Shown here piece after piece: positions 2,129 to 63,817 of a stretch of 64,000 nt of DNA; the stretch's first letter is position 1; the number at the start of each line of letters is the position of its first letter. The stretch comes from a virus. The notes beneath the pieces are model-generated. The model saw nothing but the letters and a program-made list of their open reading frames with translations. It was not told the DNA's origin and did no database searches. The stretch lies in IMG/VR virus record IMGVR_UViG_3300011013_000001, positions 1 through 64,000 of that record. One strand, 5' to 3'. The position numbers were made by a program, and so were the translations under genes.

Positions 2129-2667
2129 ACGTCTTCCCCCGGTATATCGTGCACACCTTCCGGTAACACTATCTCATTCCACGCATCATCACCTTCGCGG
2201 TTACCCATCCACTTCCCGTCAGGCCCCGTCTTATCCCACCACCATTTCGGTCTCATTTCAGAGCGAGTGGACCCTGATACAGGTCCCGGGCGTACAGCCG
2301 TACGGAAATTATTTTCAAGACTTAAACCGGGTGCTATCTCATCCAATTCGTAACGGGTCAGCGGGCGCTCACCTCTACTCATACCTTTGCCCCTCCCACT
2401 GCTGACTACCTCACGCTCAACATGCGGCCATCGCTGGTACCGTTTAAGAGGGAAATTATGCAACGCTTCTCGGAACTTACGTGCACGGACACCGGATTGT
2501 GCTGTACCGATGCGATTCCAATAATGCTGAGTGATATGCGGCATACCATGAGGTGGTTTTTCTAAGGCCCGCTTCGGGTAATGTCTTTCGTCTTCGTACC
2601 CGCTCTTAGAAGAGTAGAGCGCTTCCTTGAGCAACCGCCACGCGAGGTCCATAGGTTCGCCTGCCAT
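2125..2667 (-). CDS. hypothetical protein with N-terminal EPMDLAWRLLK tag
   Basis: The ORF track gives 2125-2712. I prefer the ATG at 2667 (MAGEPMDLAWRLLKE), preceded by GGTGAcacat. This puts the tag at the N-terminus, as in the other carriers. Confidence 0.65.
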   Translation of the reverse strand: MAGEPMDLAWRLLKEALYSSKSGYEDERHYPKRALEKPPHGMPHITQHYWNRIGTAQSGVRARKFREALHNFPLKRYQRWPHVEREVVSSGRGKGMSRGERPLTRYELDEIAPGLSLENNFRTAVRPGPVSGSTRSEMRPKWWWDKTGPDGKWMGNREGDDAWNEIVLPEGVHDIPGEDV

Positions 2668-2752
2668 ATGTGTCACCAAAAGCAACCGGCCATTAGGGTT
2701 TCGGCGCATCAAACCGGGTCACGGGAGACCAGCGCTTGCACCAAAAAGGGGA

Positions 2753-2929
2753 CTAAGAGTGAAAAACCGTATAGGTAATCATACCCATAATGACTTCACA
2801 GGTAATATGCACCACCTCGTTCTTCATAATCCCGTCATCGTCCAACTTCTGCTGTAACTCGGCGGCCATACTGTTGTCCGCACCATTCGGCGGCCATCGG
2901 TAGATTTTGACGAAGATGTCTGATGCCAC
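2753..2929 (-). CDS. possible 58-aa hypothetical protein
   Basis: Own translation in the 260-bp gap. GTG start after GAGGCGG; product VASDIFVKIYRWPPNGADNSMAAELQQKLDDDGIMKNEVVHITCEVIMGMITYTVFHS. No motif support. Confidence 0.25.
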   Translation of the reverse strand: MASDIFVKIYRWPPNGADNSMAAELQQKLDDDGIMKNEVVHITCEVIMGMITYTVFHS

Positions 2930-2971
2930 GGCCCCGCCTCAATACAGGTGAAACGTGCCTAACTGATTAAA

Positions 2972-4705
2972 TTATGCCCGTTTCCACGGTACGCCTGTAC
3001 CGTTTTCTCCTTCAGTGGTAGCGAGAGCGTGCTCGTTCATACTAGCGCCTTGACCGTGCAACCACGCGTTTGCGTTATGATGGTCAGTCCATTGATTCTC
3101 TCCGAATTGAGCAGCGTCCACATTAGCATCAAGCCATTGGCCTAATTGCTTCATTCGTCCTGAGCCGCCATACCGGTCTTTACCGGACGCCTGTGACCGT
3201 TCCCCTGTATCCGCGTCTGCTTGCATCAATACATGACCTTGTTCCGCTGCGCCGGCAGGTTTGATGAAATAACCGGAGGGTGATGTTGTGTATTGCCCTG
3301 CTTGATTATAACCTGAAAAGTTACCACCTTTAGTATCATATCCGAAAAATGGAGCGAAATCGCCGGCGCGCGCTCCTTCGCTCGGGTCATCTACACCCGC
3401 GCTACCACCACCGGAACGAGTGTAAAACGGAAAAGTGCGTCTTACAGACGGGTCACGGCTACTCGCATAAGAAGCCGCTCCAATATGCCGACCCTGATGG
3501 TCTGTCCCGTGGTAATCAAAGCGCGGCTCACTCAGAGGAGTGTCCCATTCTTTGAGTAAACGCCAAGCGAGGTCCATAGGCTCGCCTGCCTCAATTGTGT
3601 CTTGCCAATCAGGGTCATCATCTGTCGGTAGGTTATGCGCCAGCGCGGTACGCTCTTCGTTAGTTAGACCGTGCTCGTCTTCCCACAGTTGCCAATCACC
3701 CCATGCGTCGTCTGTTGGTTTCACGGGTGCCGCATCACGGAGAGTTTTGTTGCGTAAGTCTTCCCAATTAGCGCGCTTCCCTGTACCATCACACCACGCG
3801 CAGATGTCGGATACTGCCCCTTGACCTGTTCCTCTACACATAGAGCATGGCTCGTCTTCAGGGTAGCCTGCCGTGTCGGGCATTGACGCTTTCAGCAACC
3901 GCATAGCGATTTCCATTGGCTCGCCCTTGTTCCGTTGCTGAAACTCAGGCGAGAATTGAGCATCTTCGCTAGTCCTTGGTAGAGCGAGATTCTGTTGGAC
4001 ATAGTATTTCTCTTCGTCAGTCAAACCATGCTCGTCTGTTAGTTTCACGGGTGCCGCATCACGGAGAGTTTTGTTGCGTAAGTCTTCCCAATTAGCGCGC
4101 TCCCCTGTACCATCACACCACGCGCAGATGTCGGATACTGCCCCTTGACCTGTCCCTCTACACATAGAGCATGGCTCGTCTTCAGGGTAGCCTGCCGTGC
4201 CGGGCATTGACGCTTTCAGCAACCGCATAGCGAGGTCCATTGGCTCGCCTGTCTTCTTATCTTGCCAATCTGTGCTCGGTAATTGATAATCGGGGTCACC
4301 CGATGCTTGTTGTCCTATGAATAATGCCATATCTTCCTCATCTTCGGGGGTCATATTATCAAAAAATTGACGATATGCTTCAGCCTCATCACGCATTAGT
4401 TTGTCTTGCCACCAATTTTCATCAACTTGCATTTCGGGGTTCCCATTGGAAGCAGGGATAGTGATGATTCTACCCACTTCATCTCTACGAGGAGCCACTC
4501 GCGCAATACTACCCATGTGGTAGTTGTCCCATTCGGGCATCGCTTGCCCATGCTTTGCCTCATACGCTTCGTGCGTTAATCGCTCAGCGATTGGATGGAT
4601 TGTATATTGGGGCGTGTGAGTGATATTACCTCGGTCAATATCATGCTGTGCAATATAAGGGTCAGTGTTGATGGCTTGGTGGGGCAACGCTTTCCATACC
4701 ATCAT
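2972..4705 (-). CDS. tag-bearing Zn-finger protein: 3 x EPMDLA[WM]RLLK and 2 x DnaJ-type CxxCxGxG-x7-CxxCxGxG modules
   Basis: 577-aa ORF. It has two 108-aa tandem modules (GEPM[DE][LI]AMRLLKASMP.TAGYPEDEPCSMCRGTGQGAVSDICAWCDGTG...) and a third tag copy. The C-terminal half is Gly/Ser/Tyr-rich. Confidence 0.85.
   Translation of the reverse strand: MMVWKALPHQAINTDPYIAQHDIDRGNITHTPQYTIHPIAERLTHEAYEAKHGQAMPEWDNYHMGSIARVAPRRDEVGRIITIPASNGNPEMQVDENWWQDKLMRDEAEAYRQFFDNMTPEDEEDMALFIGQQASGDPDYQLPSTDWQDKKTGEPMDLAMRLLKASMPGTAGYPEDEPCSMCRGTGQGAVSDICAWCDGTGERANWEDLRNKTLRDAAPVKLTDEHGLTDEEKYYVQQNLALPRTSEDAQFSPEFQQRNKGEPMEIAMRLLKASMPDTAGYPEDEPCSMCRGTGQGAVSDICAWCDGTGKRANWEDLRNKTLRDAAPVKPTDDAWGDWQLWEDEHGLTNEERTALAHNLPTDDDPDWQDTIEAGEPMDLAWRLLKEWDTPLSEPRFDYHGTDHQGRHIGAASYASSRDPSVRRTFPFYTRSGGGSAGVDDPSEGARAGDFAPFFGYDTKGGNFSGYNQAGQYTTSPSGYFIKPAGAAEQGHVLMQADADTGERSQASGKDRYGGSGRMKQLGQWLDANVDAAQFGENQWTDHHNANAWLHGQGASMNEHALATTEGENGTGVPWKRA
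3718..4249 (-). repeat. in-frame tandem duplication, period 324 bp (core copies 3718-3925 and 4042-4249)
   Basis: By-eye alignment shows 208-bp cores differing at about 6 positions. The offset is exactly 324 nt, or 108 codons. Confidence 0.9.
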
Positions 4706-5049: not shown

Positions 5050-5050
5050 T

Positions 5051-5440
5051 CTATCTTCCCCTCGCTCTTCCCAATATCAACTGTTGTTCCTCTTCGGGCA
5101 GACCTGCTAAAGCACTCATGATAGCGGGGTATTCCGCTGCTCGTTTTCTCTGCCCCTCATCCATTTGCGATAGCCGAGGGATTAACCATTGGTATAATTC
5201 GGGGTCAATCTCGCGATGGATATTCTCGTGAGTAGACGCGTAATTTATCCAATCAGTCAATCTCTGTTCGTCATCTGCCCCCGATTCGGAAGCGATTTGG
5301 TTTAGATAGATGCGCGGCTCGGGGCGCGTTTCGGGTACAGGGTACTGTGATTCATACACCCCCAAGCGCCCTTCGTGCTCGGGAGGCGCTGATATAACGG
5401 TCTCTAATTTTAGCACGAGCCAAGCCTTCTCCATCGGCAC
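5051..5440 (-). CDS. hypothetical protein with N-terminal MPMEKAWLVLK tag
   Basis: 129-aa ORF with the tag at residues 1-11. Confidence 0.65.
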   Translation of the reverse strand: MPMEKAWLVLKLETVISAPPEHEGRLGVYESQYPVPETRPEPRIYLNQIASESGADDEQRLTDWINYASTHENIHREIDPELYQWLIPRLSQMDEGQRKRAAEYPAIMSALAGLPEEEQQLILGRARGR

Positions 5441-5441
5441 C

Positions 5442-7298
5442 TCACCATCTCCTAAACCGTTTCGCTACACCCTTCGGTGACCCCATCTCGTGTGCGCGAG
5501 AGCGTAACAATCTAACAATACTTCCGGCGATTACTGCCGGAATTACGCCTGTGCGTGGGGTTGGAGCGCCTGAGAGGGTGAAAGTCGTGGCGCTAGCGAC
5601 AGTCGCCTCGTGCTGACACGCTTCGCCTGTATCTCCGTCATGGATGCTGATTTCTATTAGCCCTGTCTGAGGGAACCCGGCAGTGCTGCCCACTGTCAGC
5701 GTAGCCCCAACAAGAGTTGTAGCGGCCGTGTACGGGCTACCGTTCGCGCCGCCCAGCGCACCACGCACGCTGCTCGCAGCATCAGTTCGGAAAACCGTGC
5801 CGCCCGTAGTAGCGACAATCTTCCGCACGCCGAGCAGGAATCCGGCATGAATATCAGGAGCAGTATTATTGAGAGTAATCGGTTCAACCGTGACAGCGCT
5901 GTGCACACGCGCCCGCTTGCCAAGAACATGCCGAATGCTACCAACCATCCTGACGTTCAGGCGAGCGCGGCCGATACCCGACACGTCTTTTGTTATGATT
6001 TGCAGACCACGGTCAGGCTGAGCATCTTCTGCTAACAGTTCCTGACCTTCACCAAACGCCTGAAGCACTCCTTCAAGCCCTTGCTGATACGAAGCGAATT
6101 GGAATGACGAAGTATGCTTAGACAGAATATGAGAAGCCTCAATGACCGCCACTTTCGCGTTCTGTTTGTCTACCGGGTTTTGGTACTCAACCACCTCTCC
6201 TGCACTCAAATCCCACGATTTAACGTGCTTCTTGGACCGAAAAGTCCCTTGTGCCTTCCTGTTGGACCGTAGTAATTGGTTGGCAGACCGGCGCGCTTTA
6301 CGCTCAGTAGTAGCAGTCGGGTCGGTCACTTCTTCCTGTTTGATATGCCCGTGTTTCTTTTGCAGTTCCGCGTCATCAACCACTATGACGATGTCGTCAT
6401 TGTTCGCCTGTCTGACCCCTGTCACCATCAGTCTGTTAGCCACGTCTGTAATCGGGTCGGCTTCAGACTCGCCCATACCTTGAGACTGTCCGACCACCCT
6501 GTCGGTATGCGCGAACACTTTAGGCGTATACAGAAAGTTACCGAACCGGTCGTAGAACAACCCGTAGCCGTCATGCCGAGCGATGAACCGGAGCGCTGTC
6601 GGAATCCTCACGCCTCGGAAGTTCTGCGAAAGGAAAGTGAGAGAGTGGCGTGCTATGTCTGCTCCTTTGTAAGACGACACGGTGCCGGCTCTCGGTCCTG
6701 AAAACGAGTTGCCGACACTGACTGAGTTCAGACCGTGCAACTTGTCGGTGAACAGGCGTTGGGTCAAATCTGTTGTTCTGAACCCTACGCCTACTTTCTG
6801 TCCTAACCTGATATGGGTTTCATCACCGAACTGAATATCAGCGAGCGACCGCCCTTTCATGTTCTGCAAGTTCAGGCGTGTCCCTTTGGTGGCCGACTCT
6901 ACGCTTTTCGCTTTGAGCCGGTTCACCGGTTCAGATTCAGCGTAAGCGAGTAGCGGCGGTTGGTCACCCGTAATCAGTTTCCCGCCGGTGAAATACACCT
7001 GACCCTCACGGTCCACTCCTGCTTTGTCAGCGTGAGTCAGGCGAACAGCAGACTGTTCTTCCGTGAATCGGTAACGCCTGTCGTGAGTCATTTGGAAATC
7101 CGATTGAGTCGGTGGTTTAACCTGTAATTTGCGACCGCTGACAGCGTCATCATCGCGCCGGTATTCGGCGTGAAGCACCGCGTTGTCCACGAATACGGGC
7201 GTTTCCACGCTTGACTTGACGGTATCTTGTACGTTGTCAAGCCGAGCGCGAGGCGAGTAAGCACGCGAAGGACCGGGCGCAGGCGGGACATACGGCAT
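5442..7298 (-). CDS. putative tail hub / baseplate-type protein
   Basis: 618-aa ORF downstream of the giant fibre gene. The segment IARHDGYGLFYDRFGNFLYTP resembles the conserved core of gpD/gp27/Tal-type hub proteins. This is recalled from memory and not verified. Confidence 0.45.
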   Translation of the reverse strand: MPYVPPAPGPSRAYSPRARLDNVQDTVKSSVETPVFVDNAVLHAEYRRDDDAVSGRKLQVKPPTQSDFQMTHDRRYRFTEEQSAVRLTHADKAGVDREGQVYFTGGKLITGDQPPLLAYAESEPVNRLKAKSVESATKGTRLNLQNMKGRSLADIQFGDETHIRLGQKVGVGFRTTDLTQRLFTDKLHGLNSVSVGNSFSGPRAGTVSSYKGADIARHSLTFLSQNFRGVRIPTALRFIARHDGYGLFYDRFGNFLYTPKVFAHTDRVVGQSQGMGESEADPITDVANRLMVTGVRQANNDDIVIVVDDAELQKKHGHIKQEEVTDPTATTERKARRSANQLLRSNRKAQGTFRSKKHVKSWDLSAGEVVEYQNPVDKQNAKVAVIEASHILSKHTSSFQFASYQQGLEGVLQAFGEGQELLAEDAQPDRGLQIITKDVSGIGRARLNVRMVGSIRHVLGKRARVHSAVTVEPITLNNTAPDIHAGFLLGVRKIVATTGGTVFRTDAASSVRGALGGANGSPYTAATTLVGATLTVGSTAGFPQTGLIEISIHDGDTGEACQHEATVASATTFTLSGAPTPRTGVIPAVIAGSIVRLLRSRAHEMGSPKGVAKRFRRW

Positions 7299-7630
7299 TA
7301 GTTATCCCCCATCCCTTTGTGTTCAGGACATTCACCCCATTCAGAAATATCCCCATGCGGGTCATTAGGTGGCAATTGTTCCACTTTGTATGGTTCGCTT
7401 TCGGGGGGACAGTGCATACAATACCACGACAATTCACCTTGATTGGCTCTGGAATCTTGGATACACTCAAGACAAGACCACTCTCGCGGTGCTCTCTCGC
7501 GCCCGCATTCGTTTATACAAGGCTCTCCGGTAGGTTGGTCTAATGGTTCTTCACTATGGGCTACATATTCTTCACCCGTATCTTTATCATGGGTTTTCAA
7601 CACGCGCCAAGCGGTATCTATTGGATTCAA
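7298..7630 (-). CDS. Zn-finger protein with N-terminal MNPIDTAWRVLK tag
   Basis: 110-aa ORF. Its TTG start overlaps the giant ORF's TGA stop (TTGA), 3 nt after GAGGTGAATAA. Three CxxC pairs. The N-terminus is nearly identical to that of 33780-34889. Confidence 0.7.
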   Translation of the reverse strand: MNPIDTAWRVLKTHDKDTGEEYVAHSEEPLDQPTGEPCINECGRERAPREWSCLECIQDSRANQGELSWYCMHCPPESEPYKVEQLPPNDPHGDISEWGECPEHKGMGDN

Positions 7631-30631: not shown

Positions 30632-30742
30632 TCACGCACAGCCCATTTTGCACATACCAGCCTTGTCTAACTTACCATCTTTACACTTAGGACAATCTTT
30701 TGCCTTTAGCAAATCCCAAGCATAGTTTAGCGGTTTACTCAT
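30632..30742 (-). CDS. 36-aa mini zinc-ribbon protein carrying the AW..LK tag
   Basis: Own translation: MSKPLNYAWDLLKAKDCPKCKDGKLDKAGMCKMGCA. The ATG overlaps the last codons of the upstream gene (AATGAGTAA). Below the ORF-track cutoff. Confidence 0.5.
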   Translation of the reverse strand: MSKPLNYAWDLLKAKDCPKCKDGKLDKAGMCKMGCA

Positions 30743-31877
30743 TTCTTGCGCCCCCTTGTTGTTGCGCTAAAGTGCGCAGTGCTTCAAACTTGCGTTGCAT
30801 ATCTTCTTTCAACACCATCCACGCAATGTCCATTGGCTCACCGGCCAATTTAGTGTCCCAATCGTAAGGCTGGTCAAACGCGCGCTCTTCTTGGACTTCT
30901 TGTTGAGGGGGGAAATCGTCTCGATGAATGCGCGTAGTGCCTGACACATTGTCCCACAAATCACGCGCCCCTTGCTTGAATCCACCCCACTTCTGCGCGG
31001 CCAAATCCTTCCAATTTTGCGTTCTGTCATAGTCCGTATTCCACGTCTGAAAGCGCCCAAGTGCATTGTCTATAGCCTGCTGCTTCTCTTCTGCGGAACG
31101 ATAAACAGTGCCTTCTTGATGGAGATTGCGTAATGCTTCTTCTGCCAATCCATGAAATCGTTCATCAATCCCCTTATTGTTCAAGACCCCACTCCATTCA
31201 TCATAATCCTTATCTGAAATAGTGTGAGATTCAGGCATGTCCTTATCGGCTGGCGGTAAATACTCGTTTTCGGCACTCATTCTTTGGACCCAACGAGTGG
31301 GGCCACCTGCACCTGCTCGCGCAGCCATGCTCGCTGCTTGAGGATGAATGGTTTTTTGGTCATGACCCACTTCAGCCGTGCTGCGATGCCCACTCGGGTG
31401 CGCGATATTGAAATAACCTGTTTGACCATCACCAATATCAATCTCATTCGACGAACGCCCGCCCATATAATTTTGCGCAGGTTGCCTGTTGGCTGCTGTC
31501 CATTCGCTGCCCTTGCTATCATCTGTGAAGAACCCACCTTCACGTTCCACTTTCTCACGCGGTTTCATGTTCATGCGGTGGTCATACTGTGAATATCCCG
31601 GTTTTGTTAGCATAGCGTCTCGTCGCCGTTGAGCAACCATGTCGCGGTCTATTGACCCAAACTTGCCCGCTTCAGGGAATTGTTGGGGGTCAGGGTCACC
31701 CCCACCCATCACATTCTTGAATTGCGCAGGTTGGCCGTAACTGGAAAGATAATCCTTTGGTTGTTGCATAGCGTCTCTCATCGTGTCTTCGTTGCCCTCC
31801 GCAGATAGTGTAGCCGCAGGTTCCATCATATTCGGGTCGCCTTTCAGCACCGACCATGCCCGTTCTATAGCAGTCAT
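30735..31877 (-). CDS. disordered protein with the tag at both termini
   Basis: The ORF track starts at 32108, but that extension overlaps 31879-32145 and looks non-protein-like. The ATG at 31877 gives MTAIERAWSVLK. The C-terminus carries GEPMDIAWMVLKE. Confidence 0.75.
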   Translation of the reverse strand: MTAIERAWSVLKGDPNMMEPAATLSAEGNEDTMRDAMQQPKDYLSSYGQPAQFKNVMGGGDPDPQQFPEAGKFGSIDRDMVAQRRRDAMLTKPGYSQYDHRMNMKPREKVEREGGFFTDDSKGSEWTAANRQPAQNYMGGRSSNEIDIGDGQTGYFNIAHPSGHRSTAEVGHDQKTIHPQAASMAARAGAGGPTRWVQRMSAENEYLPPADKDMPESHTISDKDYDEWSGVLNNKGIDERFHGLAEEALRNLHQEGTVYRSAEEKQQAIDNALGRFQTWNTDYDRTQNWKDLAAQKWGGFKQGARDLWDNVSGTTRIHRDDFPPQQEVQEERAFDQPYDWDTKLAGEPMDIAWMVLKEDMQRKFEALRTLAQQQGGARNE

Positions 31878-33779: not shown

Positions 33780-34889
33780 TCATTCACCTCTTCGTGGTGG
33801 CCCTCTTCGTGGTTGTACTCTAACACCACCGCGCCTGCCACTGCGAGTGGGTCTCGCTCTTGTAGATTGGGTAATAGGCGGTTTATTTTGTCCTTCATTC
33901 CATTCCGCGCTTCGCAGTGCTTGTCGTACCCCCTCAAGTTTTTCCATAAAATCAGGGTCCGCTTCCCGTTCTTCGTCTGACATACTGTCATATTGTTGCG
34001 CCATCGGGATATACACATTTCTGAGTTCATCGGTAGACATATTAGCGTAGGTATTCGGTTCACTCCTTTCTGCGCCTTCTGTGAAATAATCTCCCGCTTC
34101 TTCACCCATTTGTCTCGCCATTTCATTCAACTGTGATTCTTCCTCTTGGGCCTGCTGCTCTTTTTCTTCGGCCGGTCTTAGATGTTCTTCTAATTCGTCT
34201 GCGACAGTGCCTCCGCTACCGGTAATTTCTCTCCATGCTGACTCAAGGCTGGGTTCCGGCTCTTCTTCTTCTTCGTACCCGTGCGGTACTTCGGGCCTAT
34301 TTAGGTCCACTCCCACTCGCGAAAACATGTCCAAAAACGGTTGAGCGCCCCACTCGCGACCGAATCGCCTGTTTCGGCGCCGAACTTTCACCGAATCGCC
34401 TCGCATCTCCGGTTCTAATTCGTGCGGGTCGGGCATTTCAGCGCCTTCGCCCGCGAGTGCTTCATCGCGTTCAAATGGTTCTAATTCCGGCCTCATCTCT
34501 CTCTTGTCGGTAGGCACACGCTCGTAGTGGTCGGACGCTCCACCTTCATAGACAGGGTCCATCGCGTCCTTTGTTTCCTCATGCAATTCATCCCATTCTG
34601 CACCCTCCGGCATTCCGCCGAGGCGAGCCTTCGCATCACGCCGTTTTTGTTCCGCATCATGAAGGTCGTCTGCTATCTTATTTTGCTCGTCTATATCACT
34701 ACTGAACTCCGGCGGCATCGTGCCTTCCAAGCCTTCTATCCCACTGGTACGCGCTGCTTGATTCCTATGGCGCTTACGCGCAGAATGCGTAAGAGGTAGG
34801 TGGCTCATAGGAAATCGCTCTTTCTCACCCTCTTCGGGTGGGTCCGGCCACGCTTTAAGGAAATACCATGCAATATCTATTGGGTTCAT
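33780..34889 (-). CDS. highly acidic disordered protein with N-terminal MNPIDIAWYFLK tag and Arg-rich C-terminal tail
   Basis: 369-aa ORF with an ATGA overlap to the upstream gene. E/D/R-rich low complexity, ending RGGVRVQPRRGPPRRGE. Confidence 0.75.
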   Translation of the reverse strand: MNPIDIAWYFLKAWPDPPEEGEKERFPMSHLPLTHSARKRHRNQAARTSGIEGLEGTMPPEFSSDIDEQNKIADDLHDAEQKRRDAKARLGGMPEGAEWDELHEETKDAMDPVYEGGASDHYERVPTDKREMRPELEPFERDEALAGEGAEMPDPHELEPEMRGDSVKVRRRNRRFGREWGAQPFLDMFSRVGVDLNRPEVPHGYEEEEEPEPSLESAWREITGSGGTVADELEEHLRPAEEKEQQAQEEESQLNEMARQMGEEAGDYFTEGAERSEPNTYANMSTDELRNVYIPMAQQYDSMSDEEREADPDFMEKLEGVRQALRSAEWNEGQNKPPITQSTRARPTRSGRRGGVRVQPRRGPPRRGE

Positions 34890-35269
34890 TGGCTTTCCCC
34901 CGGCGGTAATCCGTGGGCCGCTCGCATCTGATTAAGCATAGCGGTATGACATTCTTCACAGATATTATCACCGTGCCATTCGTCTATAGCAGGATTCACA
35001 CGACATAAATCGCATACAGGCCCTTCCATCCGACTCTGCTGTCTTTGTCGCCCTTGCTCTTGTTGCAGTTTACGCCACATAGAAGCCTGCTCATCGGCTC
35101 TACTCTTGTCTTCTTCATTACCCCTATACGCTTGCTTAAGAAATAACCACGCTTTCTCCAACGGATAAGAACGATTGAACGCTTCACGATGCACAGCACA
35201 AAACTTCTCGTTAGGAGCGCATGCTGAATTACAACCCGGTGCCGTGCAGGTTTCCCACCCTTCGTTCAT
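34886..35269 (-). CDS. Zn-finger protein with internal PLEKAWLFLK tag
   Basis: 127-aa ORF with an N-terminal Cys/His cluster and a C-terminal CDLC...CEEC. Confidence 0.7.
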   Translation of the reverse strand: MNEGWETCTAPGCNSACAPNEKFCAVHREAFNRSYPLEKAWLFLKQAYRGNEEDKSRADEQASMWRKLQQEQGRQRQQSRMEGPVCDLCRVNPAIDEWHGDNICEECHTAMLNQMRAAHGLPPGESQ

Positions 35270-51820: not shown

Positions 51821-53131
51821 TTACTCACCTTTCAGCAAGTAATCCCAAGCGTGGTCTATCGCGTCAAAAGAAGTCTGAACAGCGGTCGGGTCTATACCCA
51901 AAGCGCGTTGAGCACCAACCCATCGCCCGCCTTTCCAACCTTTCATTCCAGCCTTCTCGGGGTCGTAAGCCTCCCCTGCTACCATTCGTTCTCGGATTAT
52001 ATCCGCAAGTTCAGGGTCGTTCGCATGAGAGCCTTCCCAAGCGCGTTTTACTCCACCGCTTAACTTACCCCATTGTTCAGGTGTCCACCCATGAGTCTGA
52101 GAGGCGTCTCCTGTAGTCGTCTCTTGCGCCCCGCCCGGCGTAGGTATTGGTATAGGTATCTCAGTATCTTGAGCCTGCGTAGGGTGATTATCGTACAAAG
52201 AAGTCTGTTGAGAGCCGGAACCTTGGTGCGGACTCACATTGATTTCAGGTTCTAGTCCGGGTAAATTGAGTTGAACATTACCAAGGTTGTTCCCGTCAGA
52301 TTGTCCCTGAGTATAATCCCCTTGACCCACGTTCCGCGGTTGCCCTACATTGGATGGAGTCATGCCTTGTTCAAGAGTTGTCGGAAGCGGTACCCGCTCA
52401 CCGGGCAAGTTCCGTGTCGCTTGGTACCCGCGTTCCGCGGTCTGTTCAGGAGTTTCAAACTGCTGAGCAGCATTTACTGCTGATGCCGCAGCATCCTTGA
52501 CCCCTCCCCATGCCTTGCGACCCCAATCTTTTACGCCGACACGACCTGCATCTTCGTCGCCATGCCACGCGTCTTTCACCTGAGCGGCTCCGGCGTCTAA
52601 TTTCTTACCTGCCACTTGCCAACCCGCTTTCGCTCCTCGGCCCATCGCTCTCGCTCCTTGGCCCATCGCTCCTAACGCTTGCTTGAGTCTACCCGGTCCG
52701 CCTTGCTGTAAAGCACCAAACTGCTGCTCGTACGCCTGAACAGGAGACGAGCCGGGGGCCATACCTTGCATCTGTCGGGCTAATTGCGGTTGAGTCCCTT
52801 GCATTGAGTGCCCGTAAGCACCACCTGACATTTCGTATTGAGGTTTACCAAGTCCGAAAAATCTGCCGGGTTTTGAAGTAACGCGCATTTGTTGCAACTG
52901 CTGAGGGTCTATGCCTTGAAGCCCGAGTTGTGGGTTACCATACATTTGCGCTTGCGCTGGCGAAGGAGTTTGAGCCATTTGGTTCTTCAGAAGAGAGTCG
53001 CCACACCAAACCCACTGTTCAACTTCGCGCGAAAAGTTCGCTTTCAGCATAACGGTAGCAACCGCTTCCGCTTCGTCCTCATATATCATCAAAACGTCAA
53101 ACTCACTCTTCAATAATTCGTAACTGTTCAC
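51821..53131 (-). CDS. Gln/Gly/Met-rich low-complexity protein with C-terminal AIDHAWDYLLK tag
   Basis: 436-aa ORF. The tag ends 2 aa before the stop. Confidence 0.7.
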   Translation of the reverse strand: MNSYELLKSEFDVLMIYEDEAEAVATVMLKANFSREVEQWVWCGDSLLKNQMAQTPSPAQAQMYGNPQLGLQGIDPQQLQQMRVTSKPGRFFGLGKPQYEMSGGAYGHSMQGTQPQLARQMQGMAPGSSPVQAYEQQFGALQQGGPGRLKQALGAMGQGARAMGRGAKAGWQVAGKKLDAGAAQVKDAWHGDEDAGRVGVKDWGRKAWGGVKDAAASAVNAAQQFETPEQTAERGYQATRNLPGERVPLPTTLEQGMTPSNVGQPRNVGQGDYTQGQSDGNNLGNVQLNLPGLEPEINVSPHQGSGSQQTSLYDNHPTQAQDTEIPIPIPTPGGAQETTTGDASQTHGWTPEQWGKLSGGVKRAWEGSHANDPELADIIRERMVAGEAYDPEKAGMKGWKGGRWVGAQRALGIDPTAVQTSFDAIDHAWDYLLKGE

Positions 53132-57689: not shown

Positions 57690-57788
57690 GTCTATCACGA
57701 CCCTGCTACCAAGATTCGTCATATCGCTCATGGCTATACTCATATTACTGATACTCATTGGGTTCATTCCGTTAGGTTTTACGTCCAT
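57531..57788 (-). CDS. small membrane protein (2 predicted TM helices)
   Basis: 85-aa ORF. GAGGTGAaatt precedes the ATG. Confidence 0.6.
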   Translation of the reverse strand: MDVKPNGMNPMSISNMSIAMSDMTNLGSRVVIDLIMVQVIAMALGAFLLIVFEGYNMTSSQLAWTMGGLFTAFSLTGVVYRRLST

Positions 57789-57792
57789 AATT

Positions 57793-58416: not shown

Positions 58417-59361
58417 CTATTCCACCTCGGGCAGATTCGCTTGTTTTTCTGCTAACAATTGCTGCAACCCCGCTCCTACGGGAGCGACCTCTCCTCCTTG
58501 AACCTGTTGCTGTAAGACAGGGAGACCGCTCTTACCTTCAGCGAACTGCCGCATATCAAACACGACCATAGTGACATCGTTGACCCCTGTTTCGCTATTC
58601 TGCATATGAATGATAGGGATTTTATCAGCCTTTATCATTTTGAAGAACGGTTCGTATTTCTGAAGAGTGGTGGGAGTATTATCTTTGGGTTTTACCGCTG
58701 TCATCGGTACGGCTACCATACTAACCCCCTTCTTCACTTTAGCCTTGAGAGTGCCACTATTCGCCTCAATTTCGTTCTCTTCTTCTCTTTCCCATTTAGT
58801 CAGAAGATGATAGAGATGTAGATGTTCAGGACAATAAGTAGCGCGCATCGTACGACCACCGGTCACTTTTTCACGAGCGAGGAATGCCTGATTCTCGCCC
58901 GACACGGGGTCAATGAAATACATATCCCAAAGAGTCCGGCCGGTATCCTCATCGCGAATCTCACTGAACACATTACCCATGGCCTTGAGCAGATAGTCAA
59001 CATCACAACCGTCAACGCAACATTGTGACGTGTTTTTGTTGTACCTGTATTTACCACCAATCAAACGGCGTGGCGAAAAAGCACTACGCTTTGTAGGAGT
59101 TAAGAGGCGATACGCCTGTTTAATGTCCTGACGACGCGCCTTGCGTGGGTTAGCGTGCCTTGAAGGATAGAAGTTAACGCGTGGGATTTCAATATGCGGT
59201 TGATTGTCTGCCGCCGCTTGCATCACCCCTTGGGCCTGCGCTAACCCTTGAAGTTCCGCGAGCGACACGTTCGGAGTGTTCGCCGCAAGCCTCACTAATT
59301 CAGTCTGTGTGTTCATCGCCAAAGGGGTCTGCTGCGCTCCCCACGCTAAAGGATTCATCAT
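58417..59361 (-). CDS. hypothetical protein
   Basis: 314-aa ORF. The N-terminus MMNPLAWG weakly resembles the tag. Confidence 0.7.
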   Translation of the reverse strand: MMNPLAWGAQQTPLAMNTQTELVRLAANTPNVSLAELQGLAQAQGVMQAAADNQPHIEIPRVNFYPSRHANPRKARRQDIKQAYRLLTPTKRSAFSPRRLIGGKYRYNKNTSQCCVDGCDVDYLLKAMGNVFSEIRDEDTGRTLWDMYFIDPVSGENQAFLAREKVTGGRTMRATYCPEHLHLYHLLTKWEREEENEIEANSGTLKAKVKKGVSMVAVPMTAVKPKDNTPTTLQKYEPFFKMIKADKIPIIHMQNSETGVNDVTMVVFDMRQFAEGKSGLPVLQQQVQGGEVAPVGAGLQQLLAEKQANLPEVE

Positions 59362-59381
59362 TTCTCGCTCGCCTCTCTATT

Positions 59382-60107
59382 TTACCACGTTAGCATCTCA
59401 ATTAAAGTGCTTTCCACGTTCCACCCGATGCGGGTAGCCATCATTGAGACTCTACAAGGTACACCCGCTTTCTGCAATTCTACCATACCGGGTCTCAATG
59501 AATCAAAGATTCTGTGTTCGCGCAATCGCTGCTGCTTCCAAAGTATGTTCGCCTGTTCGTCCCACCATTTGTCAGCCTTGTTAGCGACTACTACCACTAA
59601 GGTAGGCTTGTATCGTTTCCCTTTAATCCGAGTCGCTATCCGGCGGTAGTTCCACCGCTGATTGATGATAGCGTCAACAAGGAACTTAAACCCACCAATA
59701 CAGTCTACAGCCCCGCCGCCACCGTTCAGTGCTCGCTCATCAAGCATGAATACTACGATTTCGCATTGTCTGTCCACCATATCCTCAATCCAAAGGTTCC
59801 AAAACCGTTGCTGTCCACCAATATCGGCGCTATGAATGACACGCCTCTCCCCCTTCCACCGGATTCGTTTCCGGGTCGGGCGAGGGAGAGTATACCCTCC
59901 TTTCAATAACCGCTTCGGATGAGCGGTACGCATCTTCTCGGGTATCTCTTCCATTTCACCCGGTGTAGTCATGTAGCGGTCAAAAGTGGTTTTACCCACC
60001 AACGTAGGTCCATAAATGCCGATTCTGCGTGGTTTCCAATAATTCCATAACTGCTGACCCCAAACCGCCGCACCAATTAGCGCAGACCCACCTAGACTCA
60101 TCGTCAA
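59382..60107 (-). CDS. small GTPase, Arf/G-alpha-like (P-loop GPTLVGKTT, DIGGQ, NKAD)
   Basis: 241 aa. G1 is GPTLVGKTT (aa 33-41). G3/switch II is ADIGGQQRFWNLW. G4 is VVANKAD. The G5-like motif is SMMATRIGWNV. The N-terminus is hydrophobic/amphipathic (LIGAAVWGQQLWNYW). Confidence 0.8.
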   Translation of the reverse strand: MTMSLGGSALIGAAVWGQQLWNYWKPRRIGIYGPTLVGKTTFDRYMTTPGEMEEIPEKMRTAHPKRLLKGGYTLPRPTRKRIRWKGERRVIHSADIGGQQRFWNLWIEDMVDRQCEIVVFMLDERALNGGGGAVDCIGGFKFLVDAIINQRWNYRRIATRIKGKRYKPTLVVVVANKADKWWDEQANILWKQQRLREHRIFDSLRPGMVELQKAGVPCRVSMMATRIGWNVESTLIEMLTW

Positions 60108-60113
60108 CGGGCA

Positions 60114-60356
60114 TCACAACCGCGAAAGTTGTTCGCCAGCCCAATCCCCAATACGGGTAACTGATGCTTCCCAAATGCTTGAACCGTAATAAAACTCAAA
60201 CGCTGAAATAACAAACGTAGTGATGAAAACCGCGATTAAGACCTTTAACCAACCGAAAAACCGTTGATATTCACGGTCTACAAGGTTTTGAGTATGCCAA
60301 GCCCTCATCGTCTTCTCAACGGCGTCGTCGCTCGGGGTCTTGAACAGCCAACCCAT
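60114..60356 (-). CDS. small single-pass membrane protein
   Basis: 80-aa ORF with the hydrophobic helix WLKVLIAVFITTFVISAFEFYY. Confidence 0.6.
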   Translation of the reverse strand: MGWLFKTPSDDAVEKTMRAWHTQNLVDREYQRFFGWLKVLIAVFITTFVISAFEFYYGSSIWEASVTRIGDWAGEQLSRL

Positions 60357-60362
60357 TCTCCA

Positions 60363-60929
60363 TCACTTCTTACCTTTCGTTTTAGATTCTGCTACCTTAC
60401 CCGCACCGAGGTCTAACGGTTGGTCGGACTTGGCTTCGTGAGCCGGAGCGGACGGTGCGAAATCCTCGCGCGGCGGTTCAGCCACTTTAGCCATCACCGC
60501 TTCAGGATTATGCTCAAGCATCTTCAGTTGAGCCTCAAGTTGTAATTCCTGTAACCGTAATTCTTGTTCCAATTGCCTACCGGAGAACATTTGCTGCATC
60601 TGCATAACTCGCCTATCCCTCTCCTTCTGTTGCCGAGCAAACGTAGCCCTGCTGTCCATGGAATCCTGCATTAACATTTTGTAAATGAAATAAGAGATAC
60701 CCTGTAAAGTGAACGCTCCCATTGTATAAGTCAGTGCGTTAGTGTACACAGAATCTTCCATTCGGAGCCATAATCGCGCATCAAACACGGCTATCGCCGC
60801 TCCTACCAACATACTCACAAAGGCAATTAAACCCATTACCTTCAATTCGTCTTCATTACCTCTATTCGGCCCTGCGCCCAGCGTCTGCATCATCTCGCCT
60901 CTCAAATAGCGACTACCGCTTTGGTTCAT
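60363..60929 (-). CDS. membrane protein (2 TM) with Gln/Glu-rich coiled-coil tail
   Basis: 188-aa ORF with no SD. An A/T box, TAATGATATT, lies at 60953-60962, about -33 to -24 from the ATG. Confidence 0.65.
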   Translation of the reverse strand: MNQSGSRYLRGEMMQTLGAGPNRGNEDELKVMGLIAFVSMLVGAAIAVFDARLWLRMEDSVYTNALTYTMGAFTLQGISYFIYKMLMQDSMDSRATFARQQKERDRRVMQMQQMFSGRQLEQELRLQELQLEAQLKMLEHNPEAVMAKVAEPPREDFAPSAPAHEAKSDQPLDLGAGKVAESKTKGKK

Positions 60930-60970
60930 AAGAGCGTCGTTCCGATTAACCCAATATCATTAGAACTCTT

Positions 60971-60986
60971 ATCCCCTTTAGGGGAT
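60971..60986 (-). terminator. perfect hairpin ATCCCC-TAAA-GGGGAT, 5 nt after the stop of the 941-aa gene
   Basis: Read directly. No U-tract follows. Together with the A/T box it may mark a transcription-unit boundary. Confidence 0.3.
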
Positions 60987-60991
60987 ACCGC

Positions 60992-63817
60992 TCAAAGGTG
61001 GACCGAGGGCGGGTAGTTGAGAGACGACAAGGACGCAATTTGTCGTACGCCCCCGGCCCGTCTACCCCTATGCCTGTCTGTCGCATAAGATTTCAGTATA
61101 GACCATGCTACATCTATCGGTTCCCCTTTACCGACTAACTCTTCGCGAGGCGTAAGAGTTTCAACGTCTTCGCTCGGTTCCCAATCAGGATGAATGCTCT
61201 TGATTGTACGATATAGAGCGCGTTCGGCTATCGGGGAAGTTAGTATGTCTTCACTTCCACTTTTCTCATACAGTTCGGCCAAATCTTGATGACCTTTCAA
61301 AGCAGCATCCATAAATCTCTCACCGGGGTCAGACCAAACATCGTTCGGGCGTCTGTAAATCTGCGAACGGACAAACTTCTGTTCAGCGCGCTCTGCCGAC
61401 CTATAATGGCTCATCATTTCCTGCCAAATCTTAGTCTTCTCTTCGTTGACTTGGTCTTTGTCCATCCCAAGATATTCAGCGCCCCTATCAAGCCTGCCCA
61501 AAGACTCTTCCCAGCCCGCATGCACCTGCTCAGGGTCCAACCCGGTAGCAGAATCCCAACCGATTAAATCCTTCTTCGGGTACTGATAATGAGTTGGTAT
61601 ATCGGTACCTTCCCACTTAGAAGCATGCATATCACTTTGCTCAAAAGGAGTCTTGAAGTTCTCATCAAGGGTGAACCCTCGCTTGTCATTAGACTCGTAT
61701 TGGTGGTAGTAATCAATCTCGGGTTCTTGTTCAACAGGTTGAGGGGGCGGAATCTGACTAGGCACGGGTACCTCGGACTGAACAGGTAGAGGGATTGGAG
61801 TTTGAGCGCTCGGAACACCATGAGTAGCCGCGGTATCAAACGTAGGAGCGCCGCGGCCTGCCCAATGTTCTAACCCACCGGGTAAGTTCAACACACCACC
61901 GCTCGTCTCCAACCGAGAAGTCTCTTCACCTGTCTCCGGGTCAACAACCTTTACCCAATTCATAGTACCGAGCGGGTCGGTAGGATGGGTAACATCTTCA
62001 TTACCGACACCGGTCGCTCCTTCAGGATATAGACCGCTCCCTATAAGTTGAGCGAACGACATTTTGTCAGCAGGACCGTACGGAGTTTCGGGTTTTAGTG
62101 GCAACGAAGCAGCCATCGTACCCGGATGAGTAGCCGGAGCGAATCCTGTACCGGAGCCTAATTCGGGTTTATACTGCTTCGGGTGGCCGTGACGGACACC
62201 CACTGTCTGTCGTTGAGGCTGCGGTGGTTTTACGAATTGCTCGCGCAGGCCAAACTGCCCTTCACCGGGTTCGGTTTGAAGGAACGACGGAGTGTCTTGC
62301 ATCGCCCCACCACCACCGATTACCGGTACCTTGCCGGGTCGCAACCACGGCTGACCGCTGACCGCTCCGAACGGCTGACCGTGTCGCGCTAGAGAATGAG
62401 CGTGCTTATACTTGGAAGCCTGACGCTGAGTCTGAGCGTATTCTTCGGCGTCTTGGTTAGGTTTGATAGTATCAATAGTCTTGTCGCCACCACAGGTAGA
62501 ACACACGCCTGTACCTGCACACCGCAAACATAGATATTCAGCATGAGGGTTATCCATAAGGTCGCTCAGCGGGTCTTCAGGTGTAGACCAACCCGCTTGA
62601 CCGAACGGACCGGAATGTTCCATCAATTCGTGGTTGATTGTAGAGCGCTCCCCTTCGTGGTTCTCATGAGCCTCGTCCACGCTACCGGTAGCACCTAGCA
62701 TTTGACCATCAGCGATGTCAGCATGAGAATTAACCGAACCATAACGCTGCATTTTAGCATCACCACCAAGATACGACAACAAATTATTACCCGTGGTTGT
62801 ACCATGACCGAGACACAATGTGCAAGGTGTTTGACCTACACGCAACCCGTTAGAGAGCGCTGTATGTAATTCAGGGTGATATAGAGCGTAGTCCTGCTCG
62901 CGTTGCACCGCGTCCTGCTTATGATTAAGAACGTGATTCTTATAGAACCGAAGAGCGCGACCTAAATCGGGGAACGTTTCAGTACCAAGTCCGCCTTTTC
63001 GTGCACCTTTGCCCACTTTTTGCCGCTCGGCCCTACCCTTCCCCATCATAGGTTTGCCCGTCTCAGGGTCAATAATCTGATTACCTTCAGGGTCAAGCAG
63101 AGGAACAACCCCCACGCGTTTTGTCTTACCTTTAACGTCTTTAACAGTCTTCGTCACGTTCTGATGTTGCGGACTCCACTTAGCGCCCCAAGAACTGTCC
63201 TCTCTCGGATGAAACCAAGTCAGCGGAGGGTGAGACCCGTCATGGGCCATAAGTCCGGTGCTCGGGTGACCGATACCCAACTCTTTGTTCAAATCAGTAT
63301 CGTAGAATGCCCCTTTACCGGGAGCGTCCTCAAACAAATACTCAAGATAACGCCTCACCTGTGCTTCTGTCATGCCCGGAGCGCTATGCGTAGTTTTACC
63401 GTCATCACCCCAAGTATTACCGAATGAGCCTACATGGAACCACCCACCTTCAGAATTGTGCTCCTCATCGTCAGGGTGCGGGACGTCAACACCAAACAAG
63501 TCGTCTTTGGTCATCCTGCCGTCCGGTAGTCGCCTGTGTTGAGGATTAGACTCTTTGCTAGGATTGTGGTTCACGTGAACACGCGACCGAGTAAAATGCG
63601 GCGGGTGTTTGACATAATCACGAACCCGAGCGTTTTGGCACTCCGGGCAACCCTTGGTCCCCTCCGGCATCAAAGGCATGCTACCGCGCTGAGCAATCTC
63701 GTGAGCCTCAAGCGGGTCAGTTATCATCGGGACGTCCTTTACGCCTACCAAATCGTTTAGGGACTCTAATTTCTGTTCGTCCAAACTCTCCTCCTCGTTT
63801 TTCACAATCACGTACAT
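60992..63817 (-). CDS. 941-aa protein with DnaJ-type CxxCxGxG fingers and near-C-terminal GEPIDVAWSILK tag
   Basis: Uninterrupted ORF containing CPEC, CTLCLGHGTT and CLRCAGTGVCSTCGGDKT. Tag at 61091-61126. Confidence 0.8.
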   Translation of the reverse strand: MYVIVKNEEESLDEQKLESLNDLVGVKDVPMITDPLEAHEIAQRGSMPLMPEGTKGCPECQNARVRDYVKHPPHFTRSRVHVNHNPSKESNPQHRRLPDGRMTKDDLFGVDVPHPDDEEHNSEGGWFHVGSFGNTWGDDGKTTHSAPGMTEAQVRRYLEYLFEDAPGKGAFYDTDLNKELGIGHPSTGLMAHDGSHPPLTWFHPREDSSWGAKWSPQHQNVTKTVKDVKGKTKRVGVVPLLDPEGNQIIDPETGKPMMGKGRAERQKVGKGARKGGLGTETFPDLGRALRFYKNHVLNHKQDAVQREQDYALYHPELHTALSNGLRVGQTPCTLCLGHGTTTGNNLLSYLGGDAKMQRYGSVNSHADIADGQMLGATGSVDEAHENHEGERSTINHELMEHSGPFGQAGWSTPEDPLSDLMDNPHAEYLCLRCAGTGVCSTCGGDKTIDTIKPNQDAEEYAQTQRQASKYKHAHSLARHGQPFGAVSGQPWLRPGKVPVIGGGGAMQDTPSFLQTEPGEGQFGLREQFVKPPQPQRQTVGVRHGHPKQYKPELGSGTGFAPATHPGTMAASLPLKPETPYGPADKMSFAQLIGSGLYPEGATGVGNEDVTHPTDPLGTMNWVKVVDPETGEETSRLETSGGVLNLPGGLEHWAGRGAPTFDTAATHGVPSAQTPIPLPVQSEVPVPSQIPPPQPVEQEPEIDYYHQYESNDKRGFTLDENFKTPFEQSDMHASKWEGTDIPTHYQYPKKDLIGWDSATGLDPEQVHAGWEESLGRLDRGAEYLGMDKDQVNEEKTKIWQEMMSHYRSAERAEQKFVRSQIYRRPNDVWSDPGERFMDAALKGHQDLAELYEKSGSEDILTSPIAERALYRTIKSIHPDWEPSEDVETLTPREELVGKGEPIDVAWSILKSYATDRHRGRRAGGVRQIASLSSLNYPPSVHL

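Follow-up and report, generated by a model that had tools for sequence, protein, structure and literature searches.

A short peptide with the consensus [G/M]-E-[P/A]-[M/F/L/I]-[D/E/N]-x-A-W-x-[L/V/F/M/I]-L-K, here called the tag, was found to recur in otherwise unrelated proteins encoded by a virus genome (IMG/VR record IMGVR_UViG_3300011013_000001, positions 1 to 64,000; this whole stretch of 64,000 nucleotides is referred to as the window). The sequence comparisons support well the reading of the tag as a lineage-specific short linear docking motif, because it appears to be a self-contained amphipathic helix, is placed at chain ends or in linkers, is constrained at the level of the peptide, and is carried by unrelated, fast-exchanged proteins of one virus lineage. 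A first-pass annotation of the window had already proposed a common docking tag. What stands of that proposal is a genuine peptide-level motif, terminal or in linkers, on heterogeneous proteins throughout a virus clade, whereas the likeness to encapsulins that accompanied it is functional only.

All 13 copies listed in that annotation were present, in frame on the minus (coding) strand and distributed over 10 open reading frames (ORFs). The sequence AW..L(L)K was read in 11 of them, and the other two, both in a 577-residue protein, read AM..LK. The copies are given below with their scores in bits against a hidden Markov model (HMM) of the tag, which for scoring the window was built from copies in other contigs only.

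61091..61126, minus strand: tag GEPIDVAWSILK, 32 residues before the C-terminus of a 941-residue protein (60992-63817); 9.2 bits.
51830..51862, minus strand: tag subtype AIDHAWDYLLK, ending 2 residues short of the stop in the 436-residue protein directly upstream of the large terminase (TerL); 4.3 bits.
35135..35170, minus strand: tag SYPLEKAWLFLK, internal, residues 34-45 of a 127-residue protein (34886-35269); 13.6 bits.
34854..34889, minus strand: tag MNPIDIAWYFLK, N-terminus of an acidic 369-residue protein (33780-34889); 12.7 bits.
31842..31877, minus strand: tag MTAIERAWSVLK, N-terminus of a 380-residue protein (30735-31877); 15.0 bits; predicted helix 3-11 (AlphaFold2, low confidence).
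30807..30842, minus strand: second tag of the 380-residue protein (30735-31877), GEPMDIAWMVLK, 23 residues before its C-terminus; 18.7 bits; inside predicted helix 349-373 (AlphaFold2, low confidence).
30704..30739, minus strand: tag SKPLNYAWDLLK, from residue 2 of a 36-residue ORF (30632-30742).
7595..7630, minus strand: tag (M)NPIDTAWRVLK, N-terminus (TTG start) of a 110-residue Cys-rich protein (7298-7630); 16.9 bits.
5408..5440, minus strand: tag (M)PMEKAWLVLK, N-terminus (GTG start) of a 129-residue protein (5051-5440); 14.7 bits.
4214..4249, minus strand: tag variant GEPMDLAMRLLK (W to M), first repeat unit of the 577-residue protein (2972-4705); 6.4 bits.
3890..3925, minus strand: tag variant GEPMEIAMRLLK, second repeat unit of the 577-residue protein; 4.0 bits.
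3551..3586, minus strand: canonical tag GEPMDLAWRLLK, internal, residues 374-385 of the 577-residue protein; 21.5 bits.
2626..2661, minus strand: canonical tag GEPMDLAWRLLK, N-terminus after Met-Ala of a 180-residue protein (2125-2667); 23.3 bits.

The 941-residue carrier is encoded near the head of the structural-strand gene block, and the 110-residue carrier directly downstream of a giant gene for 5545 residues. In the 127-residue protein the tag separates two Cys-rich segments resembling Zn fingers, and beyond its tag the 36-residue ORF, which is present in the public gene calls too, consists of a four-Cys knuckle only. Orthologues of the 369-residue carrier in two relatives (loci L003 and L013) retain the tag. 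A single-sequence AlphaFold2 model of the 380-residue carrier placed helices over both of its tags with low confidence (pLDDT 47). The 577-residue protein (minus strand) contains, at residues ~150-370, a tandem duplication of a ~108-residue unit composed of a tag variant and a DnaJ-type CxxCxGxG zinc finger; GEPMDLAMRLLK is followed by such a finger, and the DNA of GEPMEIAMRLLK is identical to that of GEPMDLAMRLLK at 34 of 36 positions, which points to the internal duplication. The canonical tag at 3551..3586 then separates the Zn-finger repeats from the C-terminal region. Two public gene calls place the start of a carrier inside the tag (2652 instead of 2667, and 5434 instead of 5440), and on the basis of the tag consensus the upstream starts, ATG at 2667 and GTG at 5440, are favoured.

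The recurrence of the motif far exceeded chance. AW..LK occurred nine times in the tiled gene set of the window and once more in the 36-residue ORF, and AW..LLK occurred once, when 0.09 occurrences of AW..LK were expected from the amino-acid composition and 2000 within-protein shuffles averaged 0.08 and never exceeded 2. For the full tag pattern ~1e-4 occurrences would be expected in the window. The other five reading frames together contained a single AW..LK. Canonical copies scored 9.2-23.3 bits with the HMM, the AM variants 6.4 and 4.0 and AWDYLLK 4.3, and the best non-tag sequence reached 3.1 at most. Two degenerate look-alikes that had been noted in the first reading of the sequence did not hold up, as the one at 48749-48931 scored -2.7 bits and the one at the N-terminus of the 314-residue protein (58417-59361) scored -3.2, its 'MMNPLAW' not being kept in 35 orthologues. 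The 'PIDAW' of a 207-residue protein was likewise rejected as a copy. Two further stretches on the minus strand score below tag level and may be eroded tags: AFVRAFDVLK at 55695-55724 in a 421-residue protein (W to F, acidic residue lost), which is homologous to true-tag carriers in relatives, and VWCGDSLLK at 52985-53011 in the 436-residue protein.

Three flavours of the tag were distinguished (Phi, hydrophobic residue): an N-terminal one, M-x-(x)-[PA]-[FIL]-[DE]-x-A-W-x-Phi-L-K; an internal or C-terminal one with an extended lead, Phi-[QM]-x-G-E-P-M-D-Phi-A-W-[RQ]-[LM]-L-K; and one longer by a residue, [AS]-W-D-x-L-[LM]-K, found C-terminally in the protein encoded upstream of TerL. When the anchor [PA][MFIL][DEN]xA was required alone, the next residue was Trp 147 times (background a few percent), and after that Trp came LK in 100 cases, MK in 9, IK in 3 and LR in 1. 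Among 207 unique copies, 105 begin at most a few residues from a start codon accompanied by a Shine-Dalgarno-like sequence, 16 are separated from the stop codon by 0-6 residues, and 86 are internal or of unassigned placement; the 16 are an undercount because the longer subtype scores low. Given these counts at either terminus, the tag is a complete unit that needs nothing before its Pro/Ala or after its Lys, and the residues after the Lys are not conserved. The flanks of the tag contain a fraction of 0.64-0.66 disorder-promoting residues, versus 0.56 in conserved structural proteins. The description of the peptide as lying at termini or by linkers is upheld.

The tag is predicted to form an amphipathic helix of ~10 residues, P/A-Phi-D/E-x-A-W-x-Phi-L-K. 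A helical wheel would place the conserved Phi, Ala, Trp, Phi and Leu together on one face, with the anchors Phi(i), A(i+3), W(i+4) and L(i+7), and the acidic residue near the N-cap and the near-invariant closing Lys would lie on the opposite face, at ends that favour helix formation. A short, amphipathic, Trp-bearing helix at extreme termini could also be a generic membrane-targeting device, as at the ends of MinD, FtsA and SepF, and membrane proteins are encoded nearby. Such helices tolerate wide variation, however, whereas the A, W, L and K of the tag are near-invariant and accompanied by a conserved acidic residue; its net charge is ~0 to +1 and its length only ~10 residues, which makes membrane targeting very improbable when set against docking on a protein.

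Selection acts on the peptide. The copies at 2626 and 3551 encode an identical peptide and differ at 5 of 36 bases, all of them synonymous. The longest exact DNA run common to different tag genes was 14 nt, and near-identity was seen only between the duplication units of the 577-residue protein. Across 101 copies in other contigs the invariant Ala was encoded by GCT, GCA or GCG, Leu by five or six codons, Lys by AAA (58) or AAG (43), and Pro by CCA, CCG or CCT. This free synonymous variation therefore points to selection on the amino-acid sequence, not on the DNA. Nucleotide conservation beyond the need of the peptide was not found among the copies, and the suggestion that the coding DNA is a dispersed repeat able to drive module shuffling finds no support. 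When 1.9 Mb of sequence from relatives was oriented by TerL or by the major capsid protein (MCP), HMM hits of at least 8 bits numbered 111 on the coding strand and 3 on the opposite one.

The carriers themselves are dissimilar, as had been stated: with the tag masked, the best BLAST E-values between the 10 carriers of the window were 0.046-0.12, and these are due to Cys-rich Zn-finger stretches. Likewise, 121 carrier ORFs from the loci of relatives fell into 66 BLAST clusters when the tag was masked. No Pfam or PHROG profile covered the tag in the 10 carriers of the window or in 114 carriers. Known domains were recognised in few carriers only (DUF5872, SLOG/YAcAr, DprA-like, HD phosphohydrolase, ParB-like and DnaJ-type zinc finger). 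Several carriers have two or three copies of the tag, often one N-terminal and one of the GEPMD type.

In the largest carrier cluster the tag often stands directly before a conserved basic domain of ~80 residues, tag-less copies of which are preceded by a vaguer '...VLVSK/LLLK' stretch, and several tags have a CxxC knuckle 4-6 residues downstream. These cases would suit a tag that is not independent but the edge of one diverged globular domain family, or else the translation of a regulatory or recombination element acting at the DNA level. The 66 unrelated carrier clusters, the lack of a Pfam or PHROG family over the tag, its occurrence at either terminus with nothing beyond, the free synonymous variation with shared runs of at most 14 nt between genes, and the strict specificity of frame and strand all speak against both variants, to which hardly any probability is given in comparison with a self-standing docking motif. 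The basic domain, possibly related to DUF5872, has the consensus SPEAxRHKxEYDxKYExxPERxKYRxELxRERRKRGxYGxGGxDMSHT...NRARHFKxRGTLK; it was found in the flank of the window (L114 6099-8756, residues ~385-465 of an 885-residue protein) and in many carriers of relatives (loci L006, L014, L015, L018, L023 and L028).

The window is 98% coding, with virtually all genes of its 64 kb on the minus strand. The genes between which the carriers are placed were assigned as follows.

50424-51818, minus-strand block: T4-type large terminase, TerL (Pfam).
46891-48756, minus-strand block: portal (Pfam).
39397-45279, minus strand: 1960-residue ORF with a weak stretch resembling ATP-dependent DNA ligases; no tag.
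37981-39369, minus strand: S78 prohead protease fused to a long scaffold-like tail (Pfam).
36839-37984, minus strand: SU10-type HK97-class MCP (Pfam).
28222-30177, minus-strand block: tail-tube-like protein (Pfam).
7627-24264, minus strand: giant ORF of 5545 residues with a laminin-G-type domain; no tag.
5442-7298, minus-strand block: tail protein (Pfam).
59382-60107 (241-residue P-loop protein), with 60363-60929, 60114-60356, 58417-59361, 57793-58416, 57531-57788 and 56554-57246, minus strand: conserved seven-gene block, including three small predicted membrane proteins.

When relatives were compared, the carriers were seen to occupy four syntenic variable slots between conserved genes, in which the occupants differ among genomes and the tag stays.

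Slot (a): upstream of the conserved block that encodes the 188-residue, 80-residue, 241-residue P-loop, 314-residue, 207-residue, 85-residue and helix-turn-helix (HTH) proteins.
Slot (b): from the HTH protein to TerL.
Slot (c): from the head-completion genes to the tail tube.
Slot (d): the distal tail genes after the giant ORF.

In relatives, slot (a) holds whole arrays of genes for 60-215 residues, each headed by the tag. No copy was seen on a conserved virion protein (TerL, portal, protease, MCP, tube and others) in the synteny comparison. All copies found in 84 kb of this genome lie in the co-directional structural block (TerL, portal, protease, MCP and tail genes), and the opposite-strand flanks (20 kb, thermosome/PolB/ERCC4) contained none, so the assignment of some carriers to non-structural blocks in the first-pass annotation is not supported. 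The most widely conserved carrier family is the protein directly upstream of TerL (436 residues in the window), which has a conserved N-terminal domain, ~300 variable residues and a conserved C-terminal peptide; across 42 positional orthologues its block HTAAWDSLLKGL was the third most conserved 12-mer (0.59, versus a mean of 0.37).

Among known systems, the internal proteins of phage T4 are very diverse and have in common only a targeting sequence, which is conserved and directs them into the scaffolding core (PMC3012670). As with the tag, the capsid-targeting sequence (CTS) of IPI, IPII and IPIII is a peptide of ~10 residues and the sole common element of diverse, fast-evolving proteins encoded in polymorphic loci (PMC3012670). 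Here too the variable slots and arrays conserve the tag alone, about half of its copies are at the extreme N-terminus, and a prohead protease is encoded alongside. The comparison with T4 that had been drawn from the window is thus a good fit, reinforced by the arrays of hypervariable small genes in relatives that share only the tag. The two peptides differ in that no sequence similarity exists between them and in that the tag ends in Phi-L-K, whereas the CTS, with its MKTYQEFIAE-like consensus, is exclusively N-terminal and ends in L/I-x-E, the site of the T4 protease gp21. The tag is N-terminal in ~51% of copies and is found C-terminally, internally and in two or three copies as well. The protease here is of the S78 (HK97) type and not of the gp21 type, the host is archaeal, and packaging is putative.

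Taken together, a mechanism can be proposed in which a magrovirus-like lineage would have attached the tag to the N- or C-termini or the linkers of many unrelated, rapidly replaced accessory proteins. All carriers would then dock on one conserved partner by helix-in-groove binding, and two or three copies per protein would add avidity on an oligomeric partner. This partner would be a component of the assembling particle, such as the capsid interior, the protease-scaffold or the portal, and the tagged proteins would enter virions and be delivered with the DNA, as T4 internal proteins are by means of their CTS. The S78 prohead protease may trim the tag after its Lys. We infer the binding of the tag, the identity of its partner, packaging and cleavage from the gene comparisons described above. 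A procapsid or virion component as partner, with the carriers packaged and delivered with the DNA, is a serious possibility, if somewhat short of probable. It is favoured because co-location with virion genes is the only obvious trait common to the carriers, because a few of them have DNA- or nucleotide-directed domains, and because an S78 protease is present and the HK97 maturation cleavage follows a Lys. Domains directed at DNA or nucleotides are a typical feature of proteins presumed to enter the host together with phage DNA. The wider claim of a modular addressing system, in which a helix at either end or in a linker loads any protein into the particle and delivers it into the host, is a little more doubtful.

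Several observations weigh against a particle component as partner. The virus is uncultured, and its nearest cultured relative, halovirus HVTV-1 (35% MCP identity), is without the tag in its structural half, where the best HMM score was 3.4 bits. Membership of the structural-strand block is no proof of late expression; the tag arrays are at the head of this block and adjoin the conserved module that encodes membrane proteins together with a GTPase-like protein, and the array genes could be early or host-directed. In contrast to the T4 sequence, the tag is also C-terminal or internal, where cutting after the Lys would remove almost nothing or sever the protein. The 1960-residue protein, at the usual position of packaged polyvalent proteins, has no tag, and the AlphaFold2 model of the 380-residue carrier is of low confidence and not good enough for a fold search. 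Finally, the C-terminal helix of the protease-scaffold (MSWDDVHRLA) was rejected as a relative of AWDxLLK, as it scored -1.1 bits and ranked about tenth in the proteome.

This helix, ..[ED][LM]AxMSWDDVHRLAxKALxG, occupies the last ~25 residues of the protease-scaffold (37981-39369, minus strand), is strongly conserved, and resembles AWDxLLK by eye; it is probably the capsid-binding element. The 1960-residue protein was considered as a hub with multiple docking sites, and no internal repeats were found in it. It lies between portal and protease, where HVTV-1 has a large 'zeta toxin' protein.

The position of the arrays bears on a second candidate partner. In most relatives the arrays are directly upstream of the block encoding the 188-residue (transmembrane), 80-residue (transmembrane), 241-residue P-loop, 314-residue, 207-residue, 85-residue (transmembrane) and HTH proteins, so that the tag might bind the viral GTPase or the membrane-protein module and recruit its carriers to a membrane site of assembly, egress or host remodelling. 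Invariant G1 (GxxxxGKT), G3 (DxGG; DxGGQ) and G4 (NKAD) motifs mark the 241-residue protein, whose N-terminal helix is hydrophobic, and with 55-59% identity between distant tag-bearing genomes it is among the best conserved proteins (TerL, ~50-56%). Small GTPases, moreover, commonly bind many unrelated effectors through short motifs. Adjacency within one long gene block is nevertheless weak evidence, and tagged genes also occupy three other slots, which are close to TerL, to the head-tail connectors and to the tail genes. The protein is possibly an Arf-like GTPase of an archaeal virus, but this assignment was not significant, as a PDB profile search gave matches to Arl8/Arl10 only (E = 0.28-0.6), and its AlphaFold2 model (pLDDT 32) was too poor for a fold search. 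Recruitment to this module is therefore considered unlikely, and a component of the procapsid or virion is still the preferred partner.

Cleavage at the tag was also considered, both as a part of the particle reading and as a function in its own right. Residues 101-106 of HK97 gp5 read FNK/SLG, and its known maturation cleavage is after Lys103. The MCP of the window (36839-37984, minus strand) shows in residues 1-45 a conserved start of 19 residues, a variable Gly/Ser/Thr-rich linker and an invariant D-[IL]-L-K-A-D-[AS]-P, which is a candidate maturation cleavage site after Lys, as in HK97 gp5. Because of the S78 protease, the Lys cleavage of HK97 and this invariant MCP sequence, trimming after the Lys of the tag is conceivable, although speculative. 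Conserved 'Phi-L-K' sites in the protease were discarded as uninformative on cleavage. The N-terminal PLLLKG is conserved and appears to belong to the protease chain itself, not to a tag, and FRILK falls inside the region matched by the S78 Pfam profile, where its counterpart by eye is AAMK of HK97 gp4.

Should the tag be mainly a signal for proteolysis (a degron at the chain end, or a site for the prohead protease with Lys as its last residue), it would set the maturation or lifetime of its carriers and not their location. The last Lys is hardly ever Arg (100 LK versus 1 LR), an S78 protease is present, large multi-tag proteins could be cut into modules, and degrons are typically terminal. 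Known prohead-protease sites, however, need far fewer than ten conserved residues before the scissile bond, only 0-6 residues would be removed from C-terminal copies, and the residues after the Lys are not conserved. Signalling of proteolysis alone is accordingly rather improbable, and both it and membrane targeting are ranked as less likely than the GTPase module or a host hub as partner; proteolysis is compatible with docking and may be part of it.

The distribution of the tag was mapped with two back-translated DNA patterns, chance expectations being estimated from pattern degeneracy, because in a local test single tags could not reach significance in a collection of 5.8 billion proteins. 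A profile of three tags in tandem returned 1014 candidates from that collection, none with E <= 10, where single tags cannot reach significance. In IMG/VR the pattern GEPMDxAWxxLK was found at 29 loci (less than 0.1 expected by chance) and M-x-P-F-[DE]-x-A-W-x-x-L-K at 82 loci (~1.5 expected). At least 118 ocean metagenome contigs contained the GEPMD pattern, and among those listed many were from Tara Oceans and none was long enough to be chromosomal. Hundreds of further tag copies were detected in relatives from ocean viromes and metagenomes. TerL relatives were found at 80 loci or more, with 67-87% identity among the matches listed, and at least 598 viral-contig stretches encode MCP relatives, 80 of which were compared and were 72-93% identical; from the number of these relatives the tag-bearing clade is large. 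The tag is thus conserved throughout a large virus clade, as the profile and pattern scans show.

In 185,579 cellular species genomes the GEPMD pattern gave 0 matches (~0.3 expected by chance), and the N-type pattern gave 9 single bacterial matches, as many as expected by chance (~9). These counts concern a further candidate partner, a conserved hub of the Poseidoniales such as the chaperonin, the proteasome or AAA unfoldase, or the replication clamp, into which changing host-takeover proteins would plug. The tag is near-invariant while TerL diverges to ~50%, and a slowly evolving partner common to many viruses would fit this. Hub-binding motifs, among them clamp- and PCNA-binding boxes, are typically terminal, and the carriers include DnaJ-type zinc fingers. 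Since neither pattern exceeded chance in cellular genomes, nothing suggests that the peptide is also used by host proteins. The tag matches no PIP box, MIM1, HbYX or Tat consensus by inspection, and there is no clear need of one hub for unrelated effectors. A host hub is for these reasons an improbable partner, and docking on the assembling particle is preferred to it.

The virus itself can be placed from its gene content. The window corresponds to bases 30794-94793 of a 109,008-bp metagenomic contig (ENA ERZ27251152 k141_769365, by exact-protein match). The 10-kb flanks encode, on the opposite strand, a group II chaperonin (thermosome), a family B DNA polymerase (PolB), an ERCC4 nuclease and a PD-(D/E)XK nuclease; the best PDB matches of the thermosome (L112 12603-14108) were archaeal chaperonins at 2e-90. 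Matches of the MCP in a phage collection were restricted to archaeal tailed viruses, the closest being haloviruses HCTV-1, HCTV-5 and HVTV-1 at ~35%. With its thermosome-type chaperonin, PolB, ERCC4 and PD-(D/E)XK nuclease in the opposite-strand flanks, the genome appears to be that of a magrovirus-like tailed archaeal virus of the thermosome-encoding kind. Like magroviruses (halovirus-related MCP, thermosome or GroEL, PolB, ERCC4, roughly 65-110 kb, marine), it has a genome of ~109 kb, an MCP near those of tailed archaeal viruses only, a group II chaperonin, PolB and ERCC4, and also a giant laminin-G-type protein. Its gene set agrees with that published for magroviruses in three papers, which assign Marine Group II (Poseidoniales) archaea as their hosts (PMC5434244, PMC10160649, PMC11706807), and the host link is taken from there. 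Term searches of the same papers found no description of the tag, and the motif string AWxxLK had no literature match. The tag sequence itself is new, with no description in the literature searched and no profile library covering it.

Other known peptides resemble the tag in part. Microcompartment encapsulation peptides, which are carried by unrelated proteins, are short amphipathic helices that occupy the N- or the C-terminus and are connected through hydrophilic linkers of low conservation; they are the closest precedent for a helix active at either terminus through a variable linker (PMC4594438). A terminal amphipathic helix with a poorly conserved linker is found here as well, the AlphaFold2 helix being of low confidence. 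Those peptides have 15-20 residues and only a hydrophobic pattern in common, whereas the tag is ~10 residues long and near-invariant at four of them (A, W, L and K); no microcompartment shell-protein family was found among the window proteins, and the container here would be a virus capsid. In encapsulins, too, a terminal peptide loads heterologous cargo into an HK97-fold shell, and this virus has an HK97-class MCP. Encapsulin cargo peptides, by contrast, are C-terminal, extended and rich in Gly, Ser and Leu, and the tag is a Trp-centred helix that differs in composition and placement; moreover, this is a complete tailed virus, equipped with genes for portal, terminase, protease and tail.

The hydrophobic anchors at i, i+4 and i+7 on one face are shared with the Phi-x-x-x-W-x-x-L helix of the p53-MDM2 type (p53 F-S-D-L-W-K-L-L, tag M-D-L-A-W-R-L-L) and with MIM1 of ESCRT-III, which is terminal and ends in L-x-x-L-K/R. 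This likeness is purely physico-chemical, as the acidic, Ala and Lys positions differ, and no SWIB/MDM2 or MIT Pfam domain that could act as a virus-encoded reader was found among the window proteins scanned. The PIP box (Q-x-x-[ILM]-x-x-[FY]-[FY]) differs in its conserved Gln, which the tag lacks, in having two aromatics where the tag has a small residue and then Trp, and in its spacing of i/i+3 instead of i/i+4.

Three further genes of the window were observed. The laminin-G-type domain of the 5545-residue ORF resembles the 6-kb LamG protein reported for Poseidoniales viruses. Between TerL and portal, a 498-residue protein (48928-50424, minus strand) has a LAGLIDADG-like motif (..AAGFLDADGYITI..), which suggests a domain derived from a homing endonuclease at the position of the HNH endonuclease of HVTV-1. 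In a 122-residue protein (27852-28220, minus strand), Pfam recognised a zinc knuckle of the retroviral CCHC type (zf-CCHC, 5.9e-05, better than the curated cut-off requires).

Devices of this general kind, in which heterogeneous viral proteins carry a targeting peptide, are already known; new here are the sequence, the archaeal host domain, and the use of both termini, internal positions and multiple copies. The roles of the unannotated genes of uncultured marine archaeal viruses are hardly known, and a common peptide provides a handle on them. The tag defines a large, otherwise unannotated gene class in an ocean virus group that counts among the most abundant of archaea, and places dozens of proteins in one functional class expected to meet the same partner, which predicts a testable interaction. 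It also improves gene calling, as the two public start sites that cut through it illustrate. If the docking on the particle is true, the tag would be the first known signal of an archaeal virus for capsid targeting and, unlike that of T4, active at either terminus; it would provide a portable loading signal for an HK97-fold capsid, usable N-terminally, C-terminally or internally. It would then mark the whole fast-evolving set of injected proteins of an uncultivated virus lineage and, with the procapsid as partner, would list the proteins that these viruses bring into Poseidoniales cells, probably factors for counter-defence or takeover.

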